A DNA stretch of 64,000 nucleotides from IMG/VR virus record IMGVR_UViG_3300027533_000013, positions 32,001 to 96,000 of that record; one strand, given 5' to 3'. Position numbers and translations under genes: made by a program. This DNA is from a virus. Its lineage: Duplodnaviria > Caudoviricetes. Shown here piece after piece: positions 747 through 32,527 of the stretch (its first letter is position 1; each line of letters begins with the position of its first letter). The notes below the pieces were generated by a model. That model ran no database searches. It saw only the letters and a list, made by a program, of their open reading frames with translations, and was not told the origin of the DNA.

Positions 747-2612
747 ATGCTCAAGTTGATTGGCGACCCGGTCCAGAAATCTGAACACCCCGAGCACAAG
801 ATAACCTTCATCCAGAAGGTGATTAAGGGTGAGACGTGGCTGGTGATGGCACACAGTGCCGTCGAGCTAGAGGACGAATGGTCCAGCCTCTACTTCACGT
901 CAGGCAGTCAGAACAACCTGTTCCTGATGCCGCCTTTCGAGCCGAATGTCTTGCTCAACCTTGTCCAGACCAACAATGTCCTGAACCAGTGCATCGAAGC
1001 GATGGAGGTGAACATCGATGGCACAGGGCATGAATTTGTCCCGGTGGATGAAGGGAAGGACATCGATAAGAAGGAAGAGAAGATCGCCAAGGCGTTCTTT
1101 GATGAGCCGTACCCGAACATCTCCATGGTCACCATCCGGCGCAAGTTGCGGCGGCAGATGGAGTCTGTAGGGTATGGGTTTATTGAAGTGCTTCGGAACA
1201 TGGCCGAGGACGTGGTGGGTCTTCGCAGTGTGGAGACGGCCCACATCCGGATGGTGAAACTAGACAAGCCCATCCAAGTCAAGAAGAAGGTGCAGCGGGA
1301 TGGCACAGAAGTCGAGCTACTGATCTGGGAACGTGAGCGTCGTTTTGCACAGACCGTCGCCCTGAAACAGCAAGTGTACTATCGGGAATTCGGAACCACC
1401 CGTCATATTAACCGTGACACTGGGGATTGGGAAGAAGAAGGCAAGAAGATCCCGCCTGAAAAGCGTGGGTCGGAGTTGCTCTGTCTGGGTATTAACCCCG
1501 ACGTGACCACTCCGTACTGGTTGCCACGATGGATTAACCAGTTACCATCAGTCATTGGCTCCAGAGCCGCCGAGGAACAGAACCTCCAGTTCTTGGATGC
1601 TGGTGGCCTGCCCCCAGCCATTGTGTTCATTCAGGGTGGCACACTCATCAAGGACACGTCCGACCAACTTCGCATGTATTTGTCGGGCCTCAACAAGAAC
1701 AAGAACCGGGCGGTGGTGGTCGAGGTCCAGTCATCGTCAGGTTCACTTGATGCGGCTGGCAAGGTCGATGTGAAGGTGGAGCGTTTCGGTTCTGCCCAGT
1801 CTCAGGATGCGATGTATACCCAGTATGATGAGTCCACTAAGGAGCACATCCGTATTGGCTTCAGACTCCCACCCCTGTTTCTGGGTTATGCGTCAGACTA
1901 CAACTTCGCCACCGCACAAGTGAGCTACATGGTGGCCGAGGCGCAGGTCTTTCTGCCAGAGCGTGCTGAGTTTGACGAGATGATCAACAAGACCATCATG
2001 AAGGAGCTAAAACTCAAGACGCTCCTGTTCAAGTCGAAGCCCATCACGCTGAAGGATGTGGAGACGCAGTTGAAAGCTCTTGAATTGTCGGCGGCACTGG
2101 CCACACGCGAGAGCTACCTGAAGGAAATCAACACAGTCAGTAGCATGGCACTGGAACTGGCTGAAGTGCCTGCTCAGGGTGTTGGTCCCGACAACGTGCC
2201 ACTCAAGAATACGCCTACGGCTGATGAACTGGATTCGGGTAAGTTGCCTGCATCCATGACGGAAGTGAAGCCGGGTGTGAAGCCAGAACCCAAGGAAACC
2301 ATCGAAGAAATGGGGAAGAAGGAAGAAGTCAAGTCCATGGCCCGAGCAAAGGCCAAGGCCATGTATACCTTCAAGGAGCGGAAGGCGGCAGGCGATCTAC
2401 TTGCGTTGACGCAGGACTATGCCATGTATCAGGGTCTGATGCCCACACTGGCACAGAAGCAGGAATTGACCGCTGAGCGTGCTGAGGAAATCAATGCTGA
2501 GGTCGAGTCGTTGCACCCCGAAGACCTGAGAGCGTTTAATAGCTTACTGGCTATGGTGGTGTTTGGGTCCGATGATGCGGACCTGTCGTCCATCGTTGCG
2601 GCGTCGAGGTAA
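747..2612 (+). CDS. phage portal protein (PBSX/XkdE-like)
   Basis: 621 aa; G.G.IEVLRN, YW.PRW, EEQNLQFLDAGG.P, IRIGFRLPPLFLG..DYNFATA motifs typical of portals; first gene of the head module. Confidence 0.9.
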   Translation: MLKLIGDPVQKSEHPEHKITFIQKVIKGETWLVMAHSAVELEDEWSSLYFTSGSQNNLFLMPPFEPNVLLNLVQTNNVLNQCIEAMEVNIDGTGHEFVPVDEGKDIDKKEEKIAKAFFDEPYPNISMVTIRRKLRRQMESVGYGFIEVLRNMAEDVVGLRSVETAHIRMVKLDKPIQVKKKVQRDGTEVELLIWERERRFAQTVALKQQVYYREFGTTRHINRDTGDWEEEGKKIPPEKRGSELLCLGINPDVTTPYWLPRWINQLPSVIGSRAAEEQNLQFLDAGGLPPAIVFIQGGTLIKDTSDQLRMYLSGLNKNKNRAVVVEVQSSSGSLDAAGKVDVKVERFGSAQSQDAMYTQYDESTKEHIRIGFRLPPLFLGYASDYNFATAQVSYMVAEAQVFLPERAEFDEMINKTIMKELKLKTLLFKSKPITLKDVETQLKALELSAALATRESYLKEINTVSSMALELAEVPAQGVGPDNVPLKNTPTADELDSGKLPASMTEVKPGVKPEPKETIEEMGKKEEVKSMARAKAKAMYTFKERKAAGDLLALTQDYAMYQGLMPTLAQKQELTAERAEEINAEVESLHPEDLRAFNSLLAMVVFGSDDADLSSIVAASR

Positions 2613-2614
2613 CC

Positions 2615-3715
2615 ATGGACTACGCCCGTATTCTCAAGTGGAGTCCTAACCAGTTGCGAAACCCCGCAGGGTCACCCGAGGGAGGACGATGGGCGAAGGG
2701 TCTTACCCCACAGGGGGAACGAGATCGATGGCATGGGAAGGATCAGGCGAAGGGTCGGAGACTTGGTACAACTGAGGCTGCTAGGACCATAGAATTTCAG
2801 AGGAATGAAGCTCCCACGTTTCCCAAGGGTACGAGCACTCAGCAACGTGAGTACATTGCAGGGCTGTCTCCGAAGGCGCAGCGACGTATTCGGGACGCTG
2901 AAAATAAAGTCATACAGGATGCAGCACTGGCCGAGATGAAAGCCAATATGGCGGTGTCAAAGTCCCCGCCACTGGATCGGACTCCGTCTGGTGAACACAG
3001 GAATACGCTCAGGACGCCCATCGTAGAACACTCAGAACACACACGGGAGTTGGGCGGCGGCATCAATGAATCCTTGGTGGTGGAAATTGATGGCAAAGAG
3101 TTTGTGTTCAAGCCGGTTGAGGGAGAAAAACATGGCGGGAGTGGTGAGGCGTCACTCGCAGAACGTGAAGTGATCGCATCTCGCATGGATGACGAACTGG
3201 GGTTCGACTTGGTGCCCATGACGGTGATGGGTGAAGTCGAAATCTCGGCCCCTAAATATCCAGAATATGACGAGACGCCTGTGAAAAGGATAGGCTCACT
3301 CCAAGAGTTTCAGGCAGGCGCAAGGAATTATGGCGTGGCGGATGTGAGTGGTCTGTCACGAAAAGATATCGGGAACATGGCGGTGCTCGATGCCCTTCTG
3401 GGAAATACTGACCGGCATACCGGTAATGCCATGGTGAAAGGTAATCAGTTAATTGCCATTGACCATGGTTACACGATGAGTGAAGTACGCGGCACCAACA
3501 GTTTAGCGGTCGATAATCTCAGACGAGATGATTTACCCACGAAATATCAGGGCGAATTAGCGGAGCGCATTGAGAAGATGGATGTAGCCCGTGTGCTTGA
3601 TGGGTCACATATTGGGAAGGCGGAACGAGCGTCCTTTGAGCGCCGGAGAAAAATCGTCATCAACCAGTTGCGTAAGGGAGAAATCCACCTGATTGGTGGA
3701 GCGTTATATGCGTGA
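2615..3715 (+). CDS. PI3/4-kinase/HipA-like kinase effector 1 with N-terminal tag
   Basis: GGGINES, VFKP..GE, REVIA, LGFDLVPMT, GSLQ, DALLGNTDRHTGN, AIDHG; N-terminus YARILKWSPNQLRNPAGSPEGGRW. Confidence 0.8.
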   Translation: MDYARILKWSPNQLRNPAGSPEGGRWAKGLTPQGERDRWHGKDQAKGRRLGTTEAARTIEFQRNEAPTFPKGTSTQQREYIAGLSPKAQRRIRDAENKVIQDAALAEMKANMAVSKSPPLDRTPSGEHRNTLRTPIVEHSEHTRELGGGINESLVVEIDGKEFVFKPVEGEKHGGSGEASLAEREVIASRMDDELGFDLVPMTVMGEVEISAPKYPEYDETPVKRIGSLQEFQAGARNYGVADVSGLSRKDIGNMAVLDALLGNTDRHTGNAMVKGNQLIAIDHGYTMSEVRGTNSLAVDNLRRDDLPTKYQGELAERIEKMDVARVLDGSHIGKAERASFERRRKIVINQLRKGEIHLIGGALYA

Positions 3716-3977
3716 ACTCACCATCTATAACTACAGCATGAAGCCCGAAGAAGTCTTGGGTAAGGTACGGCTGGTGGAGGGTGAAGTCACCATCACTGGA
3801 TTCCCACCACGGATGATGGCCGAGCTACAGGCAGGCATGCCTGATGCGAACACCGGCACCCGCATCATGCCGGATCAGGGCGTGGTGTTTTTCGAAGCGG
3901 TGCTGAATCGGTATACCGGAGCGTATGTCCGAGCCGTGGAGCGGAGCATGGCGGATGTATTGAAGTCCCATGGCTAA
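3708..3977 (+). CDS. putative immunity protein for kinase 1
   Basis: Overlaps the kinase stop; MRELTIYNYSMKPEEVLGKVRLVEG resembles ORFs 8151 and 9623; ends MADVLKSHG. Confidence 0.6.
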   Translation: MRELTIYNYSMKPEEVLGKVRLVEGEVTITGFPPRMMAELQAGMPDANTGTRIMPDQGVVFFEAVLNRYTGAYVRAVERSMADVLKSHG

Positions 3978-4452
3978 ATCCTTCACCGACGTGCTCAAGT
4001 GGGATGAGCATAAGCATCCCAGAGATAAACATGGGTTGTTCACGATGGGGACAGGCCCATTTGGGCACACGCCTGATGACCCCAAAAAAATCGTGCAGGT
4101 CTATGGGCTATCAGACTTTCCAGAGGATGCCCCGCCAGATCCCTTGGAGCCCAAGTATCAGACCGAGGAGAGAGCCGAGCAGGCTGAGCGGCGAAGCCAG
4201 CGAATTCATCTGACCCAAGAAAGTGATCCCAAGCTCCCACCTATGGGGTCGTTGACCACGAATACCGCCGCCAAGCAGCGGGGTATTGAGCGGCGGAAGA
4301 AGCGGAAGGAAAAAGCCGCACGGATGGCCGAAGCCAGACGAAAAGAAGGTGGCGTCGTCGGAGCGAAGCAGAGAGCCCTAGATTTCCGCATGGCGCAAGG
4401 CCGCGCACAGCAGAAAATTATCCGAGCTATCCGAGAGCGTAAAGACGACTAG
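3970..4452 (+). CDS. tagged basic internal head protein, function unknown
   Basis: N-terminus SFTDVLKWDEHKHPRDKHGLF; K/R-rich C-terminus. Confidence 0.6.
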   Translation: MAKSFTDVLKWDEHKHPRDKHGLFTMGTGPFGHTPDDPKKIVQVYGLSDFPEDAPPDPLEPKYQTEERAEQAERRSQRIHLTQESDPKLPPMGSLTTNTAAKQRGIERRKKRKEKAARMAEARRKEGGVVGAKQRALDFRMAQGRAQQKIIRAIRERKDD

Positions 4453-4454
4453 CC

Positions 4455-6092
4455 GTGGCGAAGACTGTAGACCTGAGAACGTATATCGCACTGGAGAGGG
4501 CGTTTCTTAGGCGTCTTCTGCGGACGTGGCGTATTCAGTCGGCTCCCATTTACCAGAAAATCACGCAAGCCTGTCTCGACCATAAATGGGATGAAGCCCG
4601 TCGATTGGTGCCCGATCTGGATATGGCTGAAGTCGGCACGGAAAACAAAGAGTGGATTACCTACATGCTCCTGTCGTGTGGCGTGTTCGGGGCCAACATG
4701 GTGGCGAGAGGTAAACCCTCCTTTGTGGGCGTGGGCACTTTCGATACCTTCCTGAAGCAGACCACCAACAACATGCTCCAGTATCTGGAGCACAACGCCA
4801 CCGCACAGATTCAGAAGGATGCTCTGCAATTGATTGCAGAGGATGAGGCCAAGACCAAAGCCATCAAGTTCGATGAGAGTAAACACCCACGAGATGGTAA
4901 AGGTAGGTTCGCTTACCATGGCACGTCCAATGAGTTGGCCGAGAAGATTCTGAAGGAAGGACTCAAGCCTCTCAGCGAGATGGATCGGAGTTCTCCCATA
5001 GGGAAAGGGTTTGCATCCACGAGTGAGAAAGTGGCGCTGAGTTATGCGGCGATGGCGTCGGATGATTCGGTGGACACTATTACAGTGTTTGTGTTCAAGC
5101 CAGAAGCCAGTCGTTACTTCCAGCCTGCCAACAAGCATGCTTTTGGGCCATCGGGTTCGTGGGCACAAGCGCGTAGCACAGAGATGTCGAGCACAGAGAC
5201 TGTGCCACCGGAATTGATTCACGAGGTGCGTCAGTATCGACTGGCTGATGTGGTCGAGGCACTAGGGCCGCAAGGTGGGAAACAGTATGCAGATTGGGAG
5301 TCTCCACTGGAGGATGTAGATCCAGTGAAGGTGGTCCGAAAAGAAGATCAGGTCATTTATGTGGCCTTTTTGACCACGTCTGGGCCTGTGTTAAAATGGG
5401 ATGCGTCGAAACACCCACGGGAACCCAAGGGAAGCGCCATAGGAGGGCAGTTCACCGAGGGAACCGTGCAGGAGGGTCCGGACTTTACCCGAGTGGCCAT
5501 CACGAGTCAGCGGCCAGAGGGTGATCCGGGGCACCAAGCGAACAAAGAGGTCTTCCAGCACATGCACGAGTTCCAGAGCCGTCTGGAGGCCCTACCGGGG
5601 GTTACCAGAGTCTCTGTGAAGCCGGGAGTCGGTGGGTGGGATGGTGGGTCGGAGTCCATGTGGCAAGTGTTCTACCGGGGCAACGGAGCCGCCAGACGGT
5701 TGGTGGCGCAGACGGCTAAGACGTTCAATCAGGATGCGGTGCTGGTCCTGAAGAAGTGTACGGGCAGTAATTGCCAGCCTGCGGTAGAATTGTCGTTCGC
5801 GGGTGGGGTGTCTCCGGTCGTCAGGGAAAAGGTCCATGCGGTGCTGGTGAAGAACGGCATCCAAGGGTGGACGTGGATGAAGCGGGGCGGAAAGACCCTA
5901 CTCCGGATGGTGTCGGTGCCCCAGTGGGGTGGCGTGGCTGAGAAGCACCAGAAGGCGACAGCCGCCGTCAGTCAGAAGTTACGAGAGGATGGGCTAGAGA
6001 ACCATCGTAGCGTGCATAAAGTGGCCGTATCGGTCATGGAGCGCGAGGGAGACAACAGCTATGACCGAATCATCGGACGAACAGGCACGTAA
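4455..6092 (+). CDS. MuF N-terminal half fused to an ADP-ribosyltransferase-like domain and a possible SAM-lyase-like domain
   Basis: Helical N-terminus; tag AIKFDESKHPRDGKGRF; ART motifs YHGTS..ILKEGLKP..FASTS..ALSYA..VPPELI; second tag VLKWDASKHPREPKGSAIGGQF; third domain GGWDGGSESMWQV..FNQDAVL. Confidence 0.6.
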   Translation: MAKTVDLRTYIALERAFLRRLLRTWRIQSAPIYQKITQACLDHKWDEARRLVPDLDMAEVGTENKEWITYMLLSCGVFGANMVARGKPSFVGVGTFDTFLKQTTNNMLQYLEHNATAQIQKDALQLIAEDEAKTKAIKFDESKHPRDGKGRFAYHGTSNELAEKILKEGLKPLSEMDRSSPIGKGFASTSEKVALSYAAMASDDSVDTITVFVFKPEASRYFQPANKHAFGPSGSWAQARSTEMSSTETVPPELIHEVRQYRLADVVEALGPQGGKQYADWESPLEDVDPVKVVRKEDQVIYVAFLTTSGPVLKWDASKHPREPKGSAIGGQFTEGTVQEGPDFTRVAITSQRPEGDPGHQANKEVFQHMHEFQSRLEALPGVTRVSVKPGVGGWDGGSESMWQVFYRGNGAARRLVAQTAKTFNQDAVLVLKKCTGSNCQPAVELSFAGGVSPVVREKVHAVLVKNGIQGWTWMKRGGKTLLRMVSVPQWGGVAEKHQKATAAVSQKLREDGLENHRSVHKVAVSVMEREGDNSYDRIIGRTGT

Positions 6093-6231
6093 GGAGTTGC
6101 GGGAAGCGTTGGCTCAGGAGCAGGCCACAGGTGAACCAGTGGATGACTCGTGGACCAATGACCTACCCAGTGATCCACTCCCCGAGGATGACGAGGACGT
6201 GTCGGCCACGTTCGTGAAGAAGCATACGTAG
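6061..6231 (+). CDS. small acidic protein (56 aa), candidate immunity/partner
   Basis: MTESSDEQARKELREAL...EDDEDVSATFVKKHT; GAGGGA RBS; overlaps the end of 4455..6092; too short for the ORF track. Confidence 0.5.
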   Translation: MTESSDEQARKELREALAQEQATGEPVDDSWTNDLPSDPLPEDDEDVSATFVKKHT

Positions 6232-6237
6232 GACACC

Positions 6238-8094
6238 ATGCCACCACTTACCCGGCAATTGATTGCAACTATCAAGTCTATGGTGCAGGGCTATGCCCAC
6301 GTCTTGAAGTGGAATCGCAACCAGCCGCGTGGCCCGAAGGGGTCAGCCACGGGTGGGCAGTGGATCAGTCAAGGGAGTCATGGGACCGGAGCGGCCAGCG
6401 CAATCGATGATAAATACGGCACGGCACCGGGGATGGAACGCTACGCCACCCATGGGGATCGTGGCGCAGGCTTTTCCACCATGGATCGAGCACGGGCTAT
6501 CGCAGGCCACACGCGGACACCCGACCCATCCTTCAAGCCTGTTCTGTTGAACGTCAAAGAAGGTGGCCGAGGATTTGTGAATCGTCCTCGTGGAGTGGGT
6601 GTTCCCGAACCACCACCGCCTGATCCACATCAGGAAGTCATTCAGGCCCTGAAGACCGACCGAGCGACAGACAGCCGCCCACTGGGGAATGCAGGCAATG
6701 CGAATGCCTCATGTGTGGTGACGTTGGTGGATGACAAGGGGGAGACCATCGAAGCCGTCTATAAACCCGAACGTGGTGAATCGTGGAGTTTGCGTTTTGC
6801 GAACCATGACATCAAGAAGATGGTCACCAACAAGGACTTTTCGTTGGCGGCTCGTGAAACCTTTGCGTATGAGGTGGATTCGGCACTGAAGCTGGAAATC
6901 GTGCCTGAAACCGTGCTCCGTGAGGTCGTAGACGAAACTAACATCGATATCAACACCAAGGCCAAAGGCGGAATGAACAGTGGTGATGGGCAGGGATACG
7001 ATTCAGACCAAGCCCGAGAGGATTATCGAGACTATCAGGAAAATGCCGAAGAAGACGCCAGAGAAAATGCCTATGAGGAAGCTGGCGACCAGATGGCTGA
7101 CCTATACCATGAGGCACAAAAAGAGCATGTTTCTGATATCCAAGAACGTGCCAAAGAGGTACAGGAAATCTGGGATGAGGAATATGAGGCGTTCAGAGAT
7201 CAGGATGCCCATGGAACACGTTCCGCCATGTTGGAACATCCCACGTTGCCCATGGGGTCTAAGGAACCCTTTGAGCGCAAGCCGGATGAAGGCAAACTGA
7301 ATCCCATCGAGTTTCTGGATGAAGCAAACGTCGATGTCACGGACTCTATGAACGAGGCCGAGGAAAACAAGGTCCGAGAACTTATCCGAGCGAAATTGAA
7401 GGACGGCTACAGCGGGTTCGATGAAGTCGATGAAGATGACGCGGAAGAACATCTGGACCGGGATAAATTCATCGAAGACCATGCGGACACCGAGGCCAGA
7501 ATCATTGACAGTATCGTAGCGAAAAACGTCCAGTCCTATACCGAGTGGCGTCACGACCATGGGTATAACACGTCAGGCACTGCTCCGAGCGGCAGTGGGA
7601 GTGGCAGTGGCCCTGATATGAATCCTGATGCGCCCCATCCTCAAGGGGGGTCGTTTCAGCACTACCGCAGTGATGCACGGAAAGACGGATACCTCAGTGC
7701 CAGTGGTGGAGCCAAGTTGGCGGTGCTGGACTACATGATCGGCACCATGGATCGTCACCCGAACAATTTGATGTACGACGGAACGGAACCTGTGGCTATC
7801 GACAACGGCTACAGTATGCCTGCGGTGCCTGACGGTGATCCGCCCGATGCTTTCACCTTCCGGTCGCATGGCGCGAGGGATTGGGCTAGTTCCGGCACAA
7901 TACCAGACGCCACCCGAACTGAGATACTCGATTCCATGTCGAAGACGAATTGGCAGGCCGTGATGGACCGCCACCCGAACATGAATGCACTGGAGCGGAA
8001 GGCATTTCTGGGCCGTGTCGAGAAGATGAAGACGGCGTTGGGCACTCCGGATGGCCTGAAAAACCTGTGGAGCGGTTTGAACAATATGTGGTAA
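6238..8094 (+). CDS. PI3/4-kinase/HipA-like kinase effector 2 with a large acidic insertion
   Basis: Tag GYAHVLKWNRNQPRGPKGSATGGQW; VYKPERGE, RETFAY, IVPETVLRE, PHPQGGS, LDYMIGTMDRHPNN, AIDNGYS. Confidence 0.8.
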   Translation: MPPLTRQLIATIKSMVQGYAHVLKWNRNQPRGPKGSATGGQWISQGSHGTGAASAIDDKYGTAPGMERYATHGDRGAGFSTMDRARAIAGHTRTPDPSFKPVLLNVKEGGRGFVNRPRGVGVPEPPPPDPHQEVIQALKTDRATDSRPLGNAGNANASCVVTLVDDKGETIEAVYKPERGESWSLRFANHDIKKMVTNKDFSLAARETFAYEVDSALKLEIVPETVLREVVDETNIDINTKAKGGMNSGDGQGYDSDQAREDYRDYQENAEEDARENAYEEAGDQMADLYHEAQKEHVSDIQERAKEVQEIWDEEYEAFRDQDAHGTRSAMLEHPTLPMGSKEPFERKPDEGKLNPIEFLDEANVDVTDSMNEAEENKVRELIRAKLKDGYSGFDEVDEDDAEEHLDRDKFIEDHADTEARIIDSIVAKNVQSYTEWRHDHGYNTSGTAPSGSGSGSGPDMNPDAPHPQGGSFQHYRSDARKDGYLSASGGAKLAVLDYMIGTMDRHPNNLMYDGTEPVAIDNGYSMPAVPDGDPPDAFTFRSHGARDWASSGTIPDATRTEILDSMSKTNWQAVMDRHPNMNALERKAFLGRVEKMKTALGTPDGLKNLWSGLNNMW

Positions 8095-8100
8095 CAGTAA

Positions 8101-8129
8101 TTGACAAATTGTTCAAATTGTGATACAGT
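8101..8129 (+). promoter_or_regulatory. sigma70-like promoter for the putative immunity gene 8151
   Basis: TTGACA-17-TACAGT with TG extended -10. Confidence 0.7.
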
Positions 8130-8150
8130 AATGGGTGGAGGATTCTAGTT

Positions 8151-8378
8151 ATGCACACCGAGATTTGGGATCATACGGGGGGAAGGTCGAGGGTGATGGC
8201 CATCGTCCGAGTGGATGGTGGAAAGCTCTCGATTGAAGAAAAAGAACCCATGCCGCCATCCTATCACAAGATGATCGAGATGACGCAGGCACGGATGCAC
8301 GGAGAACGAGCGTTTCTACGGCAGTTGGAAGTGGAATTTTCGGGGTCATACATCACGGCGACGTTCAAGAAAGACTGA
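8151..8378 (+). CDS. putative immunity protein for kinase 2
   Basis: GGAGG RBS; MHTEIWDHTGGRSRVMAIVRVDGGKL...FSGSYITA resembles ORFs 3708 and 9623. Confidence 0.6.
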   Translation: MHTEIWDHTGGRSRVMAIVRVDGGKLSIEEKEPMPPSYHKMIEMTQARMHGERAFLRQLEVEFSGSYITATFKKD

Positions 8379-8380
8379 CC

Positions 8381-9583
8381 ATGCTGATCTTCCAGCGGAA
8401 GCCTGTGCAATCAATTGCATACGTCTCCATCCTGAAGTGGGATCGGAACCAGCCCCGTGTCCCGAAAGGGTCACCAGAGAGTGGACGATGGACGCAGGGT
8501 GGTGTCAGTCAGGGTCTCGCCGCCACCACCATGGCCGGTCGAACGCCCAGAACGTCTACGTTCAAGCCGCCTGAGTATGGCTTTGGCAGTACGGAAGATC
8601 GTCGGATGGAAGCAGATAGGGCAAAAGCCGCAGGGTTTGCCACGATCATGAACGCCCCCATGGGCACGGGGTTTGCGAACCCACCACGTATCACCGGGCA
8701 ATCTTCGATGGTGAGGCGGTTGACGACGCCATCGAAAGCCCCGGTAGTATCGGCGGCACCAACTGGTTCGTCATTGAATTCGATGAGGACTGGCAACATC
8801 GCAGATTCTGAGGAAATCAATCCGGGGACACACGCCAATGAAACGTACAAAGTGACGTTGGAGGATGGGACCGTTGCCGCATTGAAGGCTGAATCAGGTG
8901 AACGCTGGGCCGCAGCCTTTTGGAATGACGATATTTCAAACTACGTCATCAACCGGGATCTGTCGCTGGGTGAGAGAGAAGCCATTGCCTTTGAAGTCTC
9001 AGAGGCGTTAGGACTGGATCTGGTGCCGGAGACGGTCCTCCGAGAACACATTGATGTTGTTAGTACCGGGCAACCTTTTGAGGGAGTGAACATCATGAAT
9101 GATGAGGCACCCCATCCACATGGAGGTAGTCTCACGAAGTGGGTGCCGGGTATTGATTCCGATGGTCAGAAAGCGACTCCACAAGAAATCCGAAGACTGG
9201 CAGTATTGGATTACGCTATGGGGCAGATGGATCGGCATCCCAACAATGTGTCCTTCGACGCTAATGGCAAGCTCCTCGCCATGGACAATGGTTACAGTCT
9301 TCCGGCTCCCATCTATGGTCATGATGAATTCACTTTCCGGTCGGCCACCACAAGAACGTGGAGGGAGTCAGCTAGTGACGACTTTCCAGAGGATGAACGG
9401 AAGCAAATGGCCGATGCGTTAGATAGGACGGACTGGACAGCGTTTGCTGATCGTCATTCGGGCATGAGCAGTCGAGAACGTGAAGCGTTTTTGGGTCGCA
9501 TTGAGAATCTGAAAGAAGCCATGAAGACCACCACGGGCTTGAAGGAACTGTGGAAGAACCAGACCCTGTATATGGACAATTGA
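8381..9583 (+). CDS. PI3/4-kinase/HipA-like kinase effector 3
   Basis: Tag AYVSILKWDRNQPRVPKGSPESGRW; ALKAESGE, REAIAF, LVPETVLRE, LDYAMGQMDRHPNN, AMDNGYS; close paralog of 6238..8094. Confidence 0.8.
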   Translation: MLIFQRKPVQSIAYVSILKWDRNQPRVPKGSPESGRWTQGGVSQGLAATTMAGRTPRTSTFKPPEYGFGSTEDRRMEADRAKAAGFATIMNAPMGTGFANPPRITGQSSMVRRLTTPSKAPVVSAAPTGSSLNSMRTGNIADSEEINPGTHANETYKVTLEDGTVAALKAESGERWAAAFWNDDISNYVINRDLSLGEREAIAFEVSEALGLDLVPETVLREHIDVVSTGQPFEGVNIMNDEAPHPHGGSLTKWVPGIDSDGQKATPQEIRRLAVLDYAMGQMDRHPNNVSFDANGKLLAMDNGYSLPAPIYGHDEFTFRSATTRTWRESASDDFPEDERKQMADALDRTDWTAFADRHSGMSSREREAFLGRIENLKEAMKTTTGLKELWKNQTLYMDN

Positions 9584-9601
9584 CAAATTATCTGATAGAC
9601 T
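9573..9601 (+). promoter_or_regulatory. sigma70-like promoter for the putative immunity gene 9623
   Basis: TGGACA-17-TAGACT with TG extension; a TTGACA also lies at 9580. Confidence 0.55.
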
Positions 9602-9622
9602 ACAGGGGCATGGAGGTGCTAG

Positions 9623-9868
9623 TTGTACGCAGAACTTATCAATTATTCGATGGACCCGCCTAAAGTGATCCGGACCATCCGGATCGTGGATGGGAAGCTC
9701 GTCCAGACGGGTGACATGTCTCCGGAGAAGAGACGGCATCTGGAGCAGGAATATCATCTGTTCAAGACCAAGCTGAACGGCAGCGATAAGGATTTCTTGG
9801 AGAATCGGTTGGACGTGGTATTTGCGAGTAACACGTATTACAAGCCGAAGTTTCACCCCGAGGAGTAA
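9623..9868 (+). CDS. putative immunity protein for kinase 3
   Basis: GGAGG RBS, TTG start; MYAELINYSMDPPKVIRTIRIVDGKL resembles ORF 3708. Confidence 0.6.
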   Translation: MYAELINYSMDPPKVIRTIRIVDGKLVQTGDMSPEKRRHLEQEYHLFKTKLNGSDKDFLENRLDVVFASNTYYKPKFHPEE

Positions 9869-9873
9869 TACCC

Positions 9874-11649
9874 GTGCTGCAATCGATTGCAGGATATGCG
9901 GCGGTGCTGAAGGGTGGCACCTATAGCTATGGGAATACCCAGATCCCTATTGCTCCTACCAGTGCAGCCGCGCTTAGTCTGAACATGGCCCGAGACGCCA
10001 TTCAGGATGACCATCTGGAGGGCGCAGGAAAGGACGTGGACCCCAACCACGTCACGGTGCGGTATGGCCTGTTGAACGAGAACCTCGACGCCCTGAGAGC
10101 CTTTCTTGCCAGTCAGAAGCCTTTTGAGGCGCGAGTCGAGGGGGTGGAGTTATTCCCTGCCTCAGAACACTCGGATGGAGCCGTGCCCGTGGTGGCGAGG
10201 ATCGTGTCACCCGAGTTGCACGCTATCGAGGCTGAGATTGGAAATTACGCAGATTTCAAGGAAAAGAGCTTCCCGGTTTACAAACCGCACTGCACATTGG
10301 CGTATTGTAAACCGGAGATTGCCGAGCGGTATCAAGAACTATTTGTCTATGGTTCGTTTGTGGTGCAGAGCATCACCATCAGCCATGCGTCAGGTGTGCA
10401 GGAAACCATCCCGTTCGGTATAACGAATAAGTTCGATGTAACGAAGAAAGATCCGGTCAGCGGACGTTATGTCACGCCGTTTGTGTCGTTCGATAAGCAA
10501 GGCGATGAGCAGCTACGTATGATTACCAGTCTCAACGCCAGCCGCTTGGCGACGTGGGGATTTACGGCTGAGGCCGAAGTGCTGGGGATGGCCCGGTATC
10601 GTCTGACCGCCGTGCTCGATGGTCGGACCAGTAAGTTCTGCCGCATGATTGATGGCCATATTTTTGATGTGGCTGATGCGCGTGAGAAGGTGATTGAAGC
10701 CCTGAACGTGCAAGACCCCAACGACCTTCGCGTCGTCCAACCATGGCCCAAGCAGGACAAAGCATCGATGGCCATGTACAGCGAGATGAATGCCCAAGAA
10801 CTGACTGACCGAGGGCTACACATCCCACCCTACCACCCGCACTGCCGCACGTTGTGCCGGTCGGTGGAGTCGAGCAAGGGGAAGACCACCGAGGTCACGG
10901 CCACGGTGCCTGATGGGACTGAGGTCTTTCAGCCTGTCACAGCGGCTGACCTAGCGGAGATCGGTGTGACAGCGACTCCTGAACAGGTGGCCGAGTGGAA
11001 CGCCAACATCGGCATGTCTCCGGTCGAGTTGATGACCAAGCTCACTGGAGGGCGTCCCCAAGAGGTGATGACACGAGGCGTTGGTTCGAAGCCGGTGGAG
11101 TTTCATCCCTCTGGGGATATCGGACTGAACGCCCGAGGGGTCACGGATGGGGTGGAATTCAAGCTGGGGGCGATACTGGACCCATTCACGGGTATCTTCT
11201 ACTTGACCCGTGCGGAGTTGGCTGAGGGCACGCCAAAGGCCGAGGCCGCGTTCCTGAAGCGTATGTTCAGTGCCATGCTGGACATGGGGAAGAAGTCCAC
11301 GGCATCCTCGATTGCGCTCAGCGTGGCCGGTAATGCGGCATACTACGCCAAGCTGGGATTTCTGCCTGACGAGTTGGAATGGGATGCTCTGCGGACGTAT
11401 TCACTGGGAGAGTTGGAAGCAGGAGTGTTGCAGCCGATGATGGCATCGCTGGCCCCGGCTGATGCGTTGCTGGTGAAGCAGCTACTACAAGATGGGTCAC
11501 CATCGGCCTTAGTTGCTCTGACCGAGCTACCGTTCACCTACGCAGGCAAGACCATCGGTGAGTGGATTCTCAGTGAGTCGTCAGGTATTTGGGCACTGGA
11601 TCTGGCCGATGATTTGATGGTAGCGCAGGCGAAAGCGTACCTCTCATGA
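9874..11649 (+). CDS. 2H phosphoesterase (Acb1-like) + MuF/SPP1 gp7 C-terminal half + GNAT-like domain
   Basis: Two HxT motifs (HVTVRYG at 10048, PHCTLAY at 10285); MuF motifs AVLDGRTSKFCRMIDG and PPYHPHCRT; C-terminal AAYYAKLGF. Confidence 0.75.
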   Translation: MLQSIAGYAAVLKGGTYSYGNTQIPIAPTSAAALSLNMARDAIQDDHLEGAGKDVDPNHVTVRYGLLNENLDALRAFLASQKPFEARVEGVELFPASEHSDGAVPVVARIVSPELHAIEAEIGNYADFKEKSFPVYKPHCTLAYCKPEIAERYQELFVYGSFVVQSITISHASGVQETIPFGITNKFDVTKKDPVSGRYVTPFVSFDKQGDEQLRMITSLNASRLATWGFTAEAEVLGMARYRLTAVLDGRTSKFCRMIDGHIFDVADAREKVIEALNVQDPNDLRVVQPWPKQDKASMAMYSEMNAQELTDRGLHIPPYHPHCRTLCRSVESSKGKTTEVTATVPDGTEVFQPVTAADLAEIGVTATPEQVAEWNANIGMSPVELMTKLTGGRPQEVMTRGVGSKPVEFHPSGDIGLNARGVTDGVEFKLGAILDPFTGIFYLTRAELAEGTPKAEAAFLKRMFSAMLDMGKKSTASSIALSVAGNAAYYAKLGFLPDELEWDALRTYSLGELEAGVLQPMMASLAPADALLVKQLLQDGSPSALVALTELPFTYAGKTIGEWILSESSGIWALDLADDLMVAQAKAYLS

Positions 11650-11871: not shown

Positions 11872-12978
11872 ATGCCCCTGCATACGAGTCGATTCGTGTC
11901 CCGGTATGGACTCACACATGCCGCAGAGCCATCCAAACCCAAACTCCCCTTTGAATTAGTCCTGAAGTTCAACAAGTGCCACGCAGACAATTCCGGCCAA
12001 TTCTGTGACACGAGTGGTGGCACAGGTGGTAAAGAAAGTGGCGGCATAGGCGGTAAAGAAAAAGAGACTGCGAACTTCAAGAAAACTGTCCCGAAGGACG
12101 GTGAATATCCGGTAGGCACAGAACAAGACCCCATCATCAGGGCGTCAGTGAAACGTCGGTACATGGCGGGGGAAATTGAACTGGCCGACGAGCAAAAAGA
12201 ATTCTTTGGGATCGGGCCGGAAGTGAAGTTCAATTCCAAAGCGGCCAAGGTGACGAAACCCTCCGCGAAGCCATCCGACGTGAAGTCTGAGGACGGGCCG
12301 ACGCAAGTGTTCTTGGATGCCAGTACGCCGGAAGGTATCACCACGGCGCTGAAGGCCATGGGATGGAAAGATAAGAGCAAGGTTACGAACCGTGACGAAC
12401 TTTTCAAAATCGCGGAAAACAATGGGAAGATTGCGGAGAAAGGGCGTAAGCTCATTCTTGAGGCGTTGGAAAGTAGCCCCCGTGGGAAGGGAAAGGTCAA
12501 GGTAACGAAGGCGAGTGGGATTGATCAGAAGACGGCGGATAAGCTACAAGCCAACGTCAATCTCTTGCTGCACCCGACCATCCTGAAGCAGTTGAAGTCC
12601 AAGAGTACGAATCTGACGAGGGGCAGGTCGAGTGGAGATGCCCATTACTCACATTCTATTGAGGGTCAGATTACGTTTGGGCATGGGATGAATAAAAACG
12701 ATCAAGAAGCAATCTATGTTCATGAATTCGGGCATAGAATTGAAGTGTCAGTCAAAGGGTTGTTGGCGAAGGCAACCAAGGCCCGAGACAAAGCCGTCAG
12801 TGAGAACGAACCGTTGGTCAATGAATACTCCGAGAAAGTGTACGAGCATATTAAGGGCACAGAATATGTGTCGTCTGGATACGAGCACTACTTCCGCGAT
12901 CCCATTTCCTTTGCCGCCAAAGCCCCGAAACATTTTACGTTCATTCATCGGCTGGTGACGCGAGGGGAGTTGGTATAA
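11872..12978 (+). CDS. tagged zincin-like metallopeptidase effector
   Basis: Tag FELVLKFNKCHADNSGQFC; HEFGH at 12721 and downstream EYVSSGYEHYF. Confidence 0.7.
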   Translation: MPLHTSRFVSRYGLTHAAEPSKPKLPFELVLKFNKCHADNSGQFCDTSGGTGGKESGGIGGKEKETANFKKTVPKDGEYPVGTEQDPIIRASVKRRYMAGEIELADEQKEFFGIGPEVKFNSKAAKVTKPSAKPSDVKSEDGPTQVFLDASTPEGITTALKAMGWKDKSKVTNRDELFKIAENNGKIAEKGRKLILEALESSPRGKGKVKVTKASGIDQKTADKLQANVNLLLHPTILKQLKSKSTNLTRGRSSGDAHYSHSIEGQITFGHGMNKNDQEAIYVHEFGHRIEVSVKGLLAKATKARDKAVSENEPLVNEYSEKVYEHIKGTEYVSSGYEHYFRDPISFAAKAPKHFTFIHRLVTRGELV

Positions 12979-14068: not shown

Positions 14069-14344
14069 ATGCCGCTCACGAACGGGTTGTTGACGAGTCG
14101 TGCGGCTGCTCTGAAGGGTGAGGGCCATATTCACTCGGAGAAGTGGCATCGCTGTGTGGAGCACGTCAAGGCCAAGGGTGGTGGATACGATCCGTACGCC
14201 GTCTGCACCTTCAGCATTGGGTACAATGAGTCGGTCAACAAGGAACATCAGACGCCGGGGCCACATTCTTCACGAGACACCCGCAGATTCAAGCGGCGGA
14301 AAGAGCGTGCTGAAAAGTATGCCGACGTATTGAAATTCAAATAA
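14069..14344 (+). CDS. small basic protein (CxxxV..PYAVC) ending KYADVLKFK
   Basis: GAGG RBS; carries the YADVLK half of the tag at its C-terminus. Confidence 0.55.
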   Translation: MPLTNGLLTSRAAALKGEGHIHSEKWHRCVEHVKAKGGGYDPYAVCTFSIGYNESVNKEHQTPGPHSSRDTRRFKRRKERAEKYADVLKFK

Positions 14345-14657: not shown

Positions 14658-14673
14658 CTGATTGGGGTGTAGA

Positions 14674-15207
14674 ATGTCCTTGGTACTGAAGTCCGAAGAA
14701 CAGCACATTGTCATGGGCGTTGCTCCGGGCTATTGGGTGTCGAATGATGGCCGAGTGTGGTCCACACGTCCATTGAACGGGCAGGGGCCATTATTGCCGT
14801 GGGAACAGCGCCGAGAGATGAAACCGATTGTTCAGCACAATCAATATCGAACGGTGGTGATTGATAGAAAGACCGTGGCAGTTCATGCACTTGTACTAAC
14901 GGCGTTTGTAGGCCCACGACCAGCCGGGAAGCAATGTCGCCATTTGGATGGTGACAAGTCGAATAACCGGCGAGACAATTTGATCTGGGGTACTTGTGTT
15001 GAGCAGTCAGAAGATCGGGCCAAACACGGCACTAAGTTAGTAGGGTCGAAGATAGGCACGGCGAAGTTGACTGAAGCGCAAGTGAAAGAAGCGCGGAGTA
15101 TGCGACCCACTTTTCCGCTTGATTACATTGCCAAGAAATTTGGAGTGACTAAGACCTGTATTTGGCATGCTGTTTCTGGTTCCGGCTCCAATTGGAGACA
15201 CGTATGA
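14674..15207 (+). mobile_element. HNH homing endonuclease (NUMOD4/HNH type) fused to the former 5' end of the prohead protease gene
   Basis: YWVSNDGRVWS, VHALVLTAFVGPRP, CRHLDGDKSNNRRDNLIWGT, AKLTE; N-terminus MSLVLKSEEQHIVMG resembles the protease start. Confidence 0.85.
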
Positions 15208-15794
15208 ACCGAAAACTCGTAATCAAACAGGACGGTGAACTTCAGATAGCGATGGGCGAAGTTTACGCCCCCAACCGTCCTGATGCACAGGGTGAGTACA
15301 TGACGGTGGTGGAAATTCGGAAAATGGCCCATGAGTTTATCCGCTCTGGTAAGATGAAGCAGATCGACTTGATGCACGGTAATAAGATTGTTGAGGGCGC
15401 GAGTGTTGTAGAGTCGTTCGTCTCGGACGCATCCGACACACGGTTCCTACCTGATTCATGGGTGATTGGTGTTCATATCCCCGACCCAACTTTGTGGTCG
15501 TCCATCAAGAAGGGCGAAATCAACGGTTTCAGCATGGAAGCTCTCGTGTCCCGACACGATACGGATGTGGAGATTGAAATTCCTCCGGTCGTGTCAGGGT
15601 TGACCAGTAAGGGTGATGACGGTCATGAGCATAAATTCTTCGTCACCTATGACGAAAAGGGACAGTTCAAGGGTGGATTGACGGATGTGGTCAATGGCCA
15701 TTCGCATACCATCGTGGCGGGGACGCATACCCAAGACAGTCAAGGTCATCGCCATCGATTTAGTTCTGTTGATAACGTCCGAATCTTGAGGTAG
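15204..15794 (+). CDS. XkdF-like prohead serine protease
   Basis: GEVYAPNRPDAQGEYMT..EIRKMAHEF..IDLMH, VVESFV, W..IKKGEINGFSME; His-rich C-terminus (HEH, HSH, HRH). Confidence 0.85.
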   Translation: MNRKLVIKQDGELQIAMGEVYAPNRPDAQGEYMTVVEIRKMAHEFIRSGKMKQIDLMHGNKIVEGASVVESFVSDASDTRFLPDSWVIGVHIPDPTLWSSIKKGEINGFSMEALVSRHDTDVEIEIPPVVSGLTSKGDDGHEHKFFVTYDEKGQFKGGLTDVVNGHSHTIVAGTHTQDSQGHRHRFSSVDNVRILR

Positions 15795-15798
15795 GATC

Positions 15799-16965
15799 AT
15801 GCCGATTTTTCGGACCAAGTTGAAACAGTTGCGTGATGCGGATGTGCGGTTTATTTCGTTGGTAGATCGAGCCGCCACACGTATTCCGTTCCGAGTGTTG
15901 AAGCGTGAGAAGGAGAACGAGATGGGTATTGATCTGACGCGAGTATTCAAGTCGGACGGAAAAGAGGTGGCGAAGCCTTTTGTGTCGGCAATCGTGGTCT
16001 TCGCCCAGAAAAACGAGGACGCCGCGAAACAAGTGCGGGACGCCATCGAGAAGCACGGGTTCCGCATTGATCGCGTTCAGAAAGCCGATGGCGACGAGAC
16101 GCTGGTCTTCGCCCAGACGGATGCTCCGAAAGAAGTCCAGCTTGTGCGACTGAGCGATCAGTCGTTGGTATCCGTCGCCAACTTTCAGATTCCCTCGGGA
16201 TGGATGGGTGACCAGATCGAGGAGCACGGGTTCTTCCCCGATCTGAAGCTGGCCACTCAGAATCTGTACGACGAGATGCTGAAGGTTGCCAAGTCGGACA
16301 CACCACAGGACCATGCTCAGGCCGCGTTGACCAGCTACGCCCAGTACATGGAGCAGATGATCACGCTCCCGGTGGAAGCGTTCCAGTTGGACGAGGCCAT
16401 TGCTGAAATCGTCAAGAAGTGCTCCTGCGAAGACAAGAAAGAGGACGAGGAGCCGGTGAAGGAAGACGTGAAGACGGAAGACGTGGTCAAGGCCGACAAA
16501 AAGAGTCCCAAGTTGCCGCCGAAACTGGCCGGTGAGTCGGAGGCCGAGAGGAAGAAGCGTCTCAAGTCCCATCCGCCGTCTGAGATGGCTCCGGCTGATG
16601 AGGAAGATGACCAGAAGGGTCCACCGGAAGAAGCCAGCCCCGAAGAGGATGAAACCAAGAAGGCTGACACCGGCATTCAGGACATTCTCGGCGCGTTGAA
16701 GGCACTGAACGATAGCACCACGGCGCAGTTCACCACGCTGACGACCAAGTTGGAAGGTGTCGTCACCGAACAGGCCAGCCAGAAGAAAGTGCTTGACGAC
16801 GTGGTACAGAAAGCTGACACTTTGGGAGCGACGTTGAAGGGTACGGTGGTTGCCCCCGTTGTCTCCGAAGATCGCCCCGCAGGACCAGCCCGTATGCGGG
16901 TGCAGAAGGACGATGATCCTCGGACGGGCAATTTCGACACCGCGTTTCTGCGTCGTCGTCGGTAA
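15799..16965 (+). CDS. capsid scaffolding protein
   Basis: Lies between protease and MCP; N-terminal VRFISLVDRAA motif; acidic coiled-coil; many VxKAD/VxKSD sites. Confidence 0.7.
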   Translation: MPIFRTKLKQLRDADVRFISLVDRAATRIPFRVLKREKENEMGIDLTRVFKSDGKEVAKPFVSAIVVFAQKNEDAAKQVRDAIEKHGFRIDRVQKADGDETLVFAQTDAPKEVQLVRLSDQSLVSVANFQIPSGWMGDQIEEHGFFPDLKLATQNLYDEMLKVAKSDTPQDHAQAALTSYAQYMEQMITLPVEAFQLDEAIAEIVKKCSCEDKKEDEEPVKEDVKTEDVVKADKKSPKLPPKLAGESEAERKKRLKSHPPSEMAPADEEDDQKGPPEEASPEEDETKKADTGIQDILGALKALNDSTTAQFTTLTTKLEGVVTEQASQKKVLDDVVQKADTLGATLKGTVVAPVVSEDRPAGPARMRVQKDDDPRTGNFDTAFLRRRR

Positions 16966-17006: not shown

Positions 17007-17948
17007 ATGACGAATCAGGAAGTTATCCAAAAAGCGGATATGGCGCTTGCGGATCTGGCGACGGCTGGCAAGCTGAATCCGGAGCAGACCGACCGCTTCA
17101 TCCGTACGCTCATTGACCAGCCCACCCTGTTGGCTTCCATCCGGACGGTCGCCATGGGCGCACCGGAGATGAAGATCAACAAGATCGGCTTCGGCTCCCG
17201 AGTGCTGCGACCTGCGATCAGCGCCACCGCCATGGCTGATTCGGATCGCGTGAAGCCGGATCTTGGACAGGTGAACTTGGCGACGAAAGAAGTCATCGCT
17301 GAAGTCCATCTGCCCTACGACGTGATCGAGGACAACATCGAGAAGGGCAACATCAACGTGCCGTTGCAGACCGGCGCGGGTGGTCTGCACCAGACCATCG
17401 TGGACCTGTTGGCCGAGCGTGCCGCGCTCGACTTGGAAGAGCTTGGCATTCAGGGTGACACCGCAAACCTTGCGGACGCCTATCTGGCTCTTCAGGACGG
17501 CTATCTGAAGCTGGCCACCGCGAACGTGACCAACGTGGGTGGCGTGTTCGACAAGGCGGCGGTCAAAGCCGCACTGAAGACCATGCCGACCCGGTATCTC
17601 CGGAACCGCAGTGCCATGTCGCACTTCGTGTCCGTGGACAACGAGACGGAAATCCGTGACCAGTACGGTGCTCGTCAGACCGCACTCGGTGACGCACAGG
17701 TGCAGGGTCTGCTCCCGGTCTACATCTACGGTTCCAAGGTGACCCCGGTCGCCCTGATGCCGGGACCGCAGGGCCTGTTCACCGATCCGATGAATCTCAT
17801 CTTCGGGATTCAGCGGAACATCATGATCGAGTACGACAAGGACATTCGTGCCCGTGTGTTCATCATCGTGCTGACCTGCCGCATCGACTTCGCCATCGAG
17901 GAAGTCAACGCGGTGGTCAAGTACACGGGCATTACCGGAAGCCGGTAG
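17007..17948 (+). CDS. major capsid protein (HK97 fold, XkdG-like)
   Basis: GKLNPEQTDRFI, EDNIE, DLEELGIQGD, DGYLK, TDPMNLIFG; strong AGGAG RBS; followed by a terminator. Confidence 0.9.
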   Translation: MTNQEVIQKADMALADLATAGKLNPEQTDRFIRTLIDQPTLLASIRTVAMGAPEMKINKIGFGSRVLRPAISATAMADSDRVKPDLGQVNLATKEVIAEVHLPYDVIEDNIEKGNINVPLQTGAGGLHQTIVDLLAERAALDLEELGIQGDTANLADAYLALQDGYLKLATANVTNVGGVFDKAAVKAALKTMPTRYLRNRSAMSHFVSVDNETEIRDQYGARQTALGDAQVQGLLPVYIYGSKVTPVALMPGPQGLFTDPMNLIFGIQRNIMIEYDKDIRARVFIIVLTCRIDFAIEEVNAVVKYTGITGSR

Positions 17949-31568: not shown

Positions 31569-32527
31569 TGGCACTTCGACTTCTCGCCACCTTCCCGTTC
31601 ATTGATGCCAGCGGCAACAAAGCCGCTGATATGACGGTGCAGTATTGGTATCCGGGGGTGGGGTTGCTGTGCTCTGGGCATTTTAGTCAGTATGAGTCGT
31701 CGGGTGTGCATTTGGTCACGTTAGATGGCGTCTGTCGCAGACGTATGACCCACAATCGGACGTGGAGTTGGTGGCCGTCGAGACAACGTCTGCTCTGGAT
31801 GAGTGGCGGATACGAGAGGATGTATGAACCCAAGGTCTTTGCCGTTCAGCAGACGCATCCTGATGACCACATGGAAGTGAATGATTCCATCGGGGCACAT
31901 TACATCAAGTTGTTAGATCGTCGGGTGTTTGTTAGCCTCGGAAGGATTCACCACATCGTACTGGGAGGCACGCAAGATGTGGTTGAGTCGGATTTGTTAC
32001 CGCTGACGAATCCTTCGGTGAGACCCGGTCGATCAGATACGGACATTTGGGTGCCGGGAACGGTGTTAGGGAATGGGGCCGGATGTTTCTACGATACAGA
32101 GATACGGAAGGTCGTATCTCCTGTCTACAACATCGGCATGCCGTGCGAAGCGTTGGTGTATGCCCCGGAATTTGGCGTGCTGGTGTCTGGTCATCAATTG
32201 GATGAGGATGAATCGCCACCTACGGGAGAACCGTGGACGTATTCTCTGAAGATTTGGGCACTGGAAGTGAATCCGACCCAGTTACTTCCGGTCGAAGTGT
32301 TTGACGGAGTGCCGAAGTCTGGACAGGTAATCACGTATCGCGTGCAGCTACTTGGCGATCAGGACGACCCAGCCGAAGGCGAGTTCGTGAACTGGTTCGT
32401 GGAGGGCAAGGGTTTGTTACTGGATGCCCAGACCAAAACCGATGCGGACGGGTATGCCATCGCTCGGGTGCAGTATCTCATCGGGGAGACGGGTGAATCG
32501 AAAGTGCTGGCGAGGGTCGCATGTTAA
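31568..32527 (+). CDS. tail-tip protein with C-terminal Ig-like domain
   Basis: Position; C-terminal GEFVNW..G.L....TKTDADGYA. Confidence 0.55.
   Translation: MALRLLATFPFIDASGNKAADMTVQYWYPGVGLLCSGHFSQYESSGVHLVTLDGVCRRRMTHNRTWSWWPSRQRLLWMSGGYERMYEPKVFAVQQTHPDDHMEVNDSIGAHYIKLLDRRVFVSLGRIHHIVLGGTQDVVESDLLPLTNPSVRPGRSDTDIWVPGTVLGNGAGCFYDTEIRKVVSPVYNIGMPCEALVYAPEFGVLVSGHQLDEDESPPTGEPWTYSLKIWALEVNPTQLLPVEVFDGVPKSGQVITYRVQLLGDQDDPAEGEFVNWFVEGKGLLLDAQTKTDADGYAIARVQYLIGETGESKVLARVAC

Follow-up and report, generated by a model that had tools for sequence, protein, structure and literature searches.

A phage MuF-family head protein encoded in two pieces, probably after insertion of effector cassettes at a linker lysine

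The MuF-family head protein is divided between two genes

We analysed a 64,000-nucleotide stretch of a phage genome (Duplodnaviria; Caudoviricetes; IMG/VR record IMGVR_UViG_3300027533_000013, positions 32,001 to 96,000; hereafter the window) and found that its head protein of the MuF family is split between two open reading frames (ORFs) about 5 kb apart. An N-terminal helical domain (N-domain) opens ORF 4455, and the MuF core, followed by a conserved C-terminal domain (C-domain), closes ORF 9874 (ORFs are named by their first nucleotide; coordinates are collected in Table 1). The two halves lie in different frames, with stop codons and four to five other ORFs between them. The whole virus record (119,701 bp; estimated completeness 100%) holds one copy of the N-domain, one copy of the core and no intact MuF gene elsewhere, and we consider it probable that this sole MuF-family protein of the phage was fissioned after effector cassettes had been inserted at a linker carrying a putative protease site. 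Throughout, 'MuF' stands for this MuF-family lineage.

The N-domain is all-helical and spans 138 residues, ending in ..AIK, after which FDESKHPRD.. comes next. Neither Pfam nor PHROGs holds a family for it, and fold searches returned only generic helical bundles from the PDB and, from BFVD, only a protein of Stenotrophomonas phage DLP_3 and one unnamed 153-residue protein. Profile searches place the core of ORF 9874 at residues ~197-345 (nt ~10462-10908), with PHROG matches at 1e-8 to two families, phrog_115 and phrog_241, annotated as 'minor head protein / head morphogenesis'. For the C-domain a Pfam search gave no match, and a Foldseek search of the PDB with the full model of an unsplit homologue recovered only weak GNAT-like matches to the C-domain, and the family profile found nothing meaningful among the sequences of solved structures. 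A sequence-only reading of the window had assigned the helical domain and the MuF C-terminal signature to these two separate ORFs and was right on both, with coordinates accurate to within a few codons.

Homologues join both pieces in one chain

Homologues of the N-domain were collected by an exhaustive phmmer search with its 138 residues, and the matches were then searched with the window's MuF core. Besides the window's own copy this yielded 146 homologues, in all of which the domain is N-terminal. A MuF core was present in the same chain in 106 of the 138 homologues with a near-complete N-domain: directly after the N-domain in 70 (proteins of 515-560 residues, core starting at residue 133-175) and after an insert of 45 to ~1,440 residues in 36, leaving 32 without a core in the same chain. 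Because N-domain and core are fused in these homologues, the split in the window is a real one; fusions of this kind, whose consistent absence the sequence-only reading had taken as the sign that it was wrong, make up most of the set.

Individual homologues show what the undivided protein looks like. The metagenomic protein P0035 (724 residues) aligns with residues 5-131 of ORF 4455 (54% identity) and then with residues 17-583 of ORF 9874 (42% identity, E 2e-166), with ~9 residues between the two matched pieces, and so carries N-domain, 2H domain, core and C-domain in one chain. P0076 (532 residues) has the same architecture without the 2H domain. The contigs that encode P0035 and a further protein, P0009, are too short to show neighbouring genes. 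Distant homologues have TopoIB, GNAT, DUF3626 or ART-PolyVal domains in frame between N-domain and core, and one relative, P0048, carries ART-PolyVal. It had been proposed from the sequence that joining ..AIK to ..RYVTPFVSF would give a MuF of normal size, and this join reproduces the unsplit type of ~530 residues, of which P0076 is an example. As a statement of where the gene broke, the proposal is nearly exact for that basic form, but the actual break lies between the N-domain and the 2H domain, and the 2H domain is itself a cassette, as indicated by P0035 and by the junctions on both its sides.

Cassettes begin at a conserved linker lysine

In an AlphaFold2 model of the unsplit P0076 (predicted local distance difference test, pLDDT, 92.2; predicted template modelling score, pTM, 0.69) the only low-confidence segment is residues 131-150, the linker between the N-terminal bundle and the core. 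The linkers of 55 unsplit homologues share a motif that runs hydrophobic residue, V, Q or K, and then lysine (53/55), with A at +1 (41/55) and D or E at +2 (42/55). In insert-bearing homologues the tag of the first cassette begins directly after this lysine, and in the window the tag after K138 of ORF 4455 occupies the corresponding position (junction 1). We have little doubt that the cassettes were inserted exactly at the linker lysine.

The borders of the cassettes carry K↓[WF]D..HPR..G.F (the arrow marks the junction). Sixteen loci contain 64 such tags, some within polyproteins and others near the N-terminus of stand-alone cassettes, 10-40 residues in. The 2H domain of ORF 9874 is likewise flanked by junction lysines (K13 before GG and K186 before FD). 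Long DNA repeats at the cassette borders, which could serve as a recombination substrate, were looked for and none were found; the repeats at the tags are ~23 nt long with 74-78% identity, and since they are this short and imperfect, selection appears to act on the peptide. The sequence QSIA recurs in the leaders of two stand-alone cassettes and in the last helix of the N-domain.

The junction resembles sites in capsid and scaffold-like proteins

A strict form of the motif, [VI]QK[ADWFY][DE], occurs five times in the 28,337 residues of the window's plus-strand ORFs, against 0.19 expected from shuffling (never more than 3 in 200 shuffles). The scaffold-like protein accounts for three of the five, and another starts at residue 7 of the capsid protein. 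Across 49 related loci, the capsid N-terminus has h-h-[QKRS]-K-A-D within its first dozen residues in 37 of 40 distinct sequences, and the MuF linkers of these phages read ..K↓A-D/E. In DLP_3 the motif is found in the MuF linker, at the N-termini of the capsid protein and the protease, and in the scaffold. Head proteases typically cut the capsid protein, the scaffold and themselves, which makes the window's XkdF-type prohead protease a likely candidate for the enzyme that would act at the K↓ sites; removal of the N-terminal nonapeptide of the capsid protein is predicted as well. We lean towards reading the junction as a prohead-protease site. The proposal from sequence alone that cassettes accumulated at an internal protease site is in this respect supported indirectly: the linker lysine is nearly invariant in a disordered stretch and its motif recurs in capsid and scaffold-like proteins, whereas cleavage itself is deduced from those motifs.

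Alternatively, the junction may be no protease site at all, and instead a docking peptide that binds portal, scaffold or protease for encapsidation, or a module boundary that eases recombinational exchange of cassettes, with the MuF halves and their cargo staying as translated. We think this rather unlikely, yet it has points in its favour. Stand-alone cassettes retain the tags although no MuF part is attached to them, which calls for some targeting role, and HPR..G.F lies after the lysine and would remain on the mature cargo. Recombinational cassette variation has been proposed for kinase-bearing polyvalent loci (PMC5512222). However, the tags are conserved at the protein level (the DNA repeats being those given above), K↓A-D/E also stands in three classical protease substrates (at the N-termini of capsid protein and protease, and in the scaffold-like protein), and the lysine sits in a disordered linker. 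Docking and cleavage are moreover not mutually exclusive.

Two considerations weigh against the protease-site reading. The junctions of the window have VLK↓W or AIK↓F and not VQK↓A, such that equating them with the linker motif depends on relatives with VQK↓F/W; and the K-A-D of the capsid N-terminus could be conserved for structural reasons.

Separately, we observed that the last of the motifs in the scaffold-like protein (nt 16900) is followed by DDDPR.G.F, which resembles the cassette tag.

The split is most likely a derived state

Close relatives of the N-domain (62-88% identity) occur in 23 IMG/VR loci, and on contigs of sufficient length the core is found in a different ORF, 3-9.7 kb downstream; the same split layout is present in at least ten independent metagenome contigs. 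The point of breakage varies. It falls between N-domain and 2H domain in the window and in loci L003, L006, L013 and L017-L021, while in L022-L025 the N-domain and 2H domain share an ORF and the break separates 2H domain from core. In L006 the 2H domain and core share an ORF with 2.4 kb of in-frame cassettes between them. Relatives thus cover every stage, from unsplit proteins through in-frame inserts of up to 1,440 residues to split genes. The core is 42% identical to that of unsplit homologues. Among split relatives the N-domain is 70-88% identical and core plus C-domain 65-69%; since the first half is as well conserved as the second, both appear to be maintained.

We built a quick maximum-likelihood tree of the N-domain, rooted at the midpoint. 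It places the window in a supported 15-row clade, no member of which has a core in the same chain; this clade is nested in an insert-rich clade of 59 rows, which is itself nested among unsplit forms. This nesting indicates that fission is the derived state, and we regard it as highly likely that the split is both real and derived.

The opposite history, in which N-domain and core were ancestrally separate genes, the unsplit forms are fusions and the window keeps the original state, we judge improbable. The two parts do fold as separate domains on a flexible linker, and the root of the tree is a midpoint. However, no other form is as numerous or as diverse as the unsplit one (23-55% identity), and split forms belong mostly to one shallow clade (62-88%) inside the insert-bearing forms; intermediates with in-frame inserts exist, and break points vary among close relatives. 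Still less probable is that ribosomes read through stops or shift frame between the ORFs and so make a single giant polyprotein. In favour of such recoding, stops are separated from the next starts by 2-5 nt, one TAG stands between ORF 6061-6231 and ORF 6238 in a shared frame, and two neighbouring ORFs of L003 overlap by 13 nt. Against it, the four main ORFs occupy three frames, with conserved small ORFs that have their own starts between them. That the gene is simply broken, as a pseudogene or through an assembly error, and its pieces functionless relics, is suggested by the stops and frame changes between the pieces but is scarcely credible given the recurrence of the layout across independent contigs, the good conservation of both halves, which are the only MuF parts of a genome estimated to be complete, and the long, intact and conserved ORFs between them.

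Several points weigh against a derived split of a true MuF gene. Some homologues scored as lacking a core may be cut off at contig ends. The core of ORF 9874 (product P0004) scores 24.3 bits with PF04233 and the unsplit P0076 scores 28.9 bits, both just under the curated Pfam cut-off of 29.6 bits. An hhalign comparison of the family with SPP1 gp7 aligned the core motif alone (gp7 residues 193-245) with low probability, and neither this comparison nor the fold searches showed the N-domain to be related to the N-terminal region of canonical MuF proteins. The pTM of the P0076 model leaves the domain arrangement open. Finally, the tree is of the quick kind and its root is the midpoint.

A model for insertion, fission and release

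In the model we propose, the product of the undivided ancestor consisted, in this order, of the helical domain, a short flexible linker with V-(Q/K)-K↓A-(D/E), the MuF core and the C-domain. Effector cassettes would have entered exactly behind the linker lysine, with the same kind of junction, elaborated into the K↓[WF]D..HPR..G.F form, at the borders of each, and the first products would have been in-frame polyvalent proteins. In the lineage of the window, stops and restarts would then have broken the polyprotein into genes for N-domain with ART and a further domain, for a kinase, for a second kinase, and for 2H domain with core and C-domain; these would stay separate but tightly coupled, with small partner ORFs after the kinases. 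We infer that the polyprotein would be cut at each junction in the procapsid, with covalent continuity needed only for entry, so that breakage of the gene would cost little because its products would be separated in the capsid in any case. On stand-alone cassettes a leader of 10-25 residues plus the junction is retained, which may act as procapsid ticket and release site. Both MuF halves would still be made, each as a cargo fusion, and we put the chances as even that they work as separately made parts.

More speculatively, and with the odds somewhat against it, the K↓[AWF][DE] junction with HPR..G.F may be a general, portable signal for capsid loading and release that is read by XkdF-type prohead proteases. 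If so, any protein with the junction would be packed into the head and cut free, and MuF could serve as an insertion platform and then fragment without loss of function. This would be a second sequence-defined capsid-targeting system beside that of T4; it would occur widely among environmental siphoviruses of ~100 kb and could be put to direct use in engineering proteins for delivery by phages.

Relation to known systems

MuF proteins are known to carry effectors that are injected, yet how their cargo domains are added, sorted and released is poorly understood. The locus and its relatives provide a graded series that illustrates a possible route by which phages bring extra proteins into the capsid. 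This series pins cargo insertion to one residue of a flexible linker, ties it to a motif common to capsid and scaffold-like proteins, and offers an explanation for the fragmentation of a conserved structural gene without its loss. A short peptide might thus direct foreign proteins into phage heads. For annotation, ORFs of this family with only an N-domain or only a core are to be read as halves of one MuF.

With MuF proteins of the SPP1 gp7 type (PF04233) the family shares the core motif (..LDgRT..C..; PP.HP.CR) and a portal-adjacent gene in the head module. What sets it apart is an N-terminal helical domain of its own, a GNAT-like C-domain and, in the window, a gene in two pieces.

Polyvalent proteins (Iyer, Burroughs, Anand, de Souza and Aravind, 2017; PMC5512222) are proteins of phages and conjugative elements in which effector domains are strung together in virion-module proteins; the article describes MuF fusions with 2H, ART, kinase and other domains and cassette-like small ORFs, and proposes processing by a peptidase. 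The window and its relatives resemble the loci described there in their effector types (ART, kinase, 2H, GNAT, TopoIB), and the window also in a nearby zincin-like gene. At least two unrelated domains per chain occur in virion-gene context in both halves: N-domain, ART-like and a further domain in P0001 (ORF 4455), and 2H, core and GNAT-like domains in P0004. The zincin-like ORF 11872-12978 has HEFGH and a weak ATLF match (E 0.004), the MPTase-PolyVal profile gave no match, and the protein may be a polyvalent-protein metallopeptidase. The window differs from the loci of that article in that its cassettes lie inside MuF at one linker lysine, with a defined junction motif and a polyprotein broken into genes; a term search of PMC5512222, narrower than a reading of its whole text, gave no hit for 'linker' or 'HPR'. 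Literature searches found no relevant earlier description of a split MuF or of the junction tag, which is no proof of absence. Neither there nor in the term search did we meet with cassettes inside MuF at one linker residue, a junction motif shared with capsid and scaffold, or MuF fission. With cut sites now predicted, the supposed processing of polyvalent proteins becomes open to test.

MuF polymorphic toxins (Jamet et al., 2017; PMC5576092) carry variable toxic domains at the C-terminus of MuF, with small immunity-like ORFs downstream. The window shares the use of MuF as carrier and the small downstream ORFs, whereas its variable cassettes lie upstream of the core and its C-domain is conserved (42-69% across the family). 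The layout of a variable C-terminal toxin followed by an immunity gene was accordingly rejected for this locus.

Short leaders are also found on cargo proteins of other phages. In T4 internal proteins, through their capsid-targeting sequence, and in P1 DarA and DarB, the head protease removes a short N-terminal leader, and the cargo is packed and injected. The window's cassettes are unrelated to them in sequence and have, behind the leader, a conserved tag that the cargo would retain. Cleavage of DarA is also cited in PMC5512222.

A DNA search of isolated phages gave DLP_3 as the sole match (5%). Its DLP3_002 (MT110073; 'ParB-like nuclease domain protein') is an unsplit member of 445 residues with N-domain, VVVQK↓AAA linker and MuF core, encoded directly after the portal, and is at present labelled only as a ParB-like nuclease. 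DLP_3 has the protease-scaffold-capsid order of the window, and the motif at the N-termini of capsid protein and protease; unlike the window's protein, DLP3_002 lacks inserted cassettes, and its C-terminal domain is of another, ParB-like kind. Beside the DLP_3 protease, a 56-residue hypothetical protein (MT110073, 3847-4017) has a leader and a K↓ANPY..G.F tag.

Gene order and coupling in the head region

All genes of the described head region lie on the plus strand (Table 1). In most relatives the N-domain gene is directly 3' of the portal gene, with ~50 nt or less from portal stop to N-domain start in L003, L013, L017, L024 and DLP_3; in the window two cassettes stand between them, and kinase-like cassette 1 is outside the MuF split.

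Table 1. Features of the head region of the window and the unsplit relative in DLP_3
Feature	Coordinates	Strand	Evidence or remarks
Portal protein	747-2612	+	phrog_12 E 4e-22; synteny with L003-L025
Kinase-like cassette 1, N-terminal leader and junction tag	2615-3715	+	PF00454 E 5e-9; tag at nt 2636
Small ORF	3693-3977	+	After kinase-like cassette 1
Small basic protein with leader and tag	3970-4452	+	
ORF 4455 (545 aa)	4455-6092	+	N-domain, tag, weak ART-like domain, second tag, unknown domain
MuF N-terminal helical domain (N-domain), aa 1-138 of ORF 4455	4455-4868	+	146 homologues; helical bundle model pLDDT 90
Junction 1: K138, then FD..HPR..G.F tag, at ancestral linker-lysine position	4866-4910	+	
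ART-like cassette (weak PARP/Tpt1-like)	4869-5393	+	PF00644 E 5e-4; ART-PolyVal in relatives
Junction 2 (VLK↓WD..HPR..G..F), inside ORF 4455	5394-5459	+	
C-terminal cassette of ORF 4455, function unknown	5445-6092	+	Conserved in relatives, E down to 1e-105
Kinase-like cassette 2 with leader and tag	6238-8094	+	PF00454 E 1e-7
Small ORF of ~75-aa family	8151-8378	+	Alignment; kept after kinase 2 in L006-L021
Kinase-like cassette 3 with leader and tag	8381-9583	+	
Small ORF of ~75-aa family, same as 8151-8378	9623-9868	+	Alignment
ORF 9874 (591 aa)	9874-11649	+	13-aa leader, 2H, MuF core, C-domain
Leader of ORF 9874, 13 aa, ends ..VLK before GG, contains QSIA	9874-9912	+	
2H phosphoesterase (Acb1-like) cassette, ends K186↓FD	9913-10431	+	PF13563 E 1.5e-9, aa 56-150
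MuF core, aa ~187-345	10432-10908	+	PF04233 E 5.6e-5; phrog_115, phrog_241, phrog_30193
Conserved C-domain, 246 aa, weak GNAT-like fold	10909-11649	+	Foldseek E ~0.03 to GCN5-type acetyltransferases
Zincin-like (HEFGH) protein, degenerate leader	11872-12978	+	PF07737 E 0.004
XkdF-type prohead protease	15162-15794	+	PF14550 E 3e-22
Scaffold-like protein	15799-16965	+	Three [VI]QK↓[AD][DE] motifs at nt 16075, 16804, 16900
Major capsid protein	17007-17948	+	VIQK↓AD from residue 7 (nt 17025)
DLP_3 unsplit MuF	L026 (MT110073) 1856-3193		

Most gene starts in the array lie a few bases 3' of a stop, and 6 of 14 checked consist of a stop, a CC-containing spacer of 2-5 nt and ATG or GTG. This arrangement suggests termination-reinitiation coupling along the array and fits its continued expression as a unit. 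The stop-CC-ATG/GTG pattern is seen at 2615, 4455, 8381, 9874, 11872 and 14069, often without a clear Shine-Dalgarno sequence.

A family of ORFs of ~75-95 residues follows each of the three kinase-like cassettes (3693-3977, 8151-8378 and 9623-9868); these look like cognate immunity or chaperone partners. An acidic 56-residue ORF (6061-6231) is in frame with the ORF of kinase-like cassette 2 across a single TAG.

Between the zincin-like gene and the prohead protease are two further small proteins and an HNH gene. The HNH endonuclease gene (14662-15207; PF13392 E 2e-11) overlaps the 5' end of the protease gene. A 91-residue protein (14069-14344) opens with an ..AALK↓GE leader resembling the one on ORF 9874 and has ..DVLKFK at its C-terminus, as if it carried a half-junction at each end.

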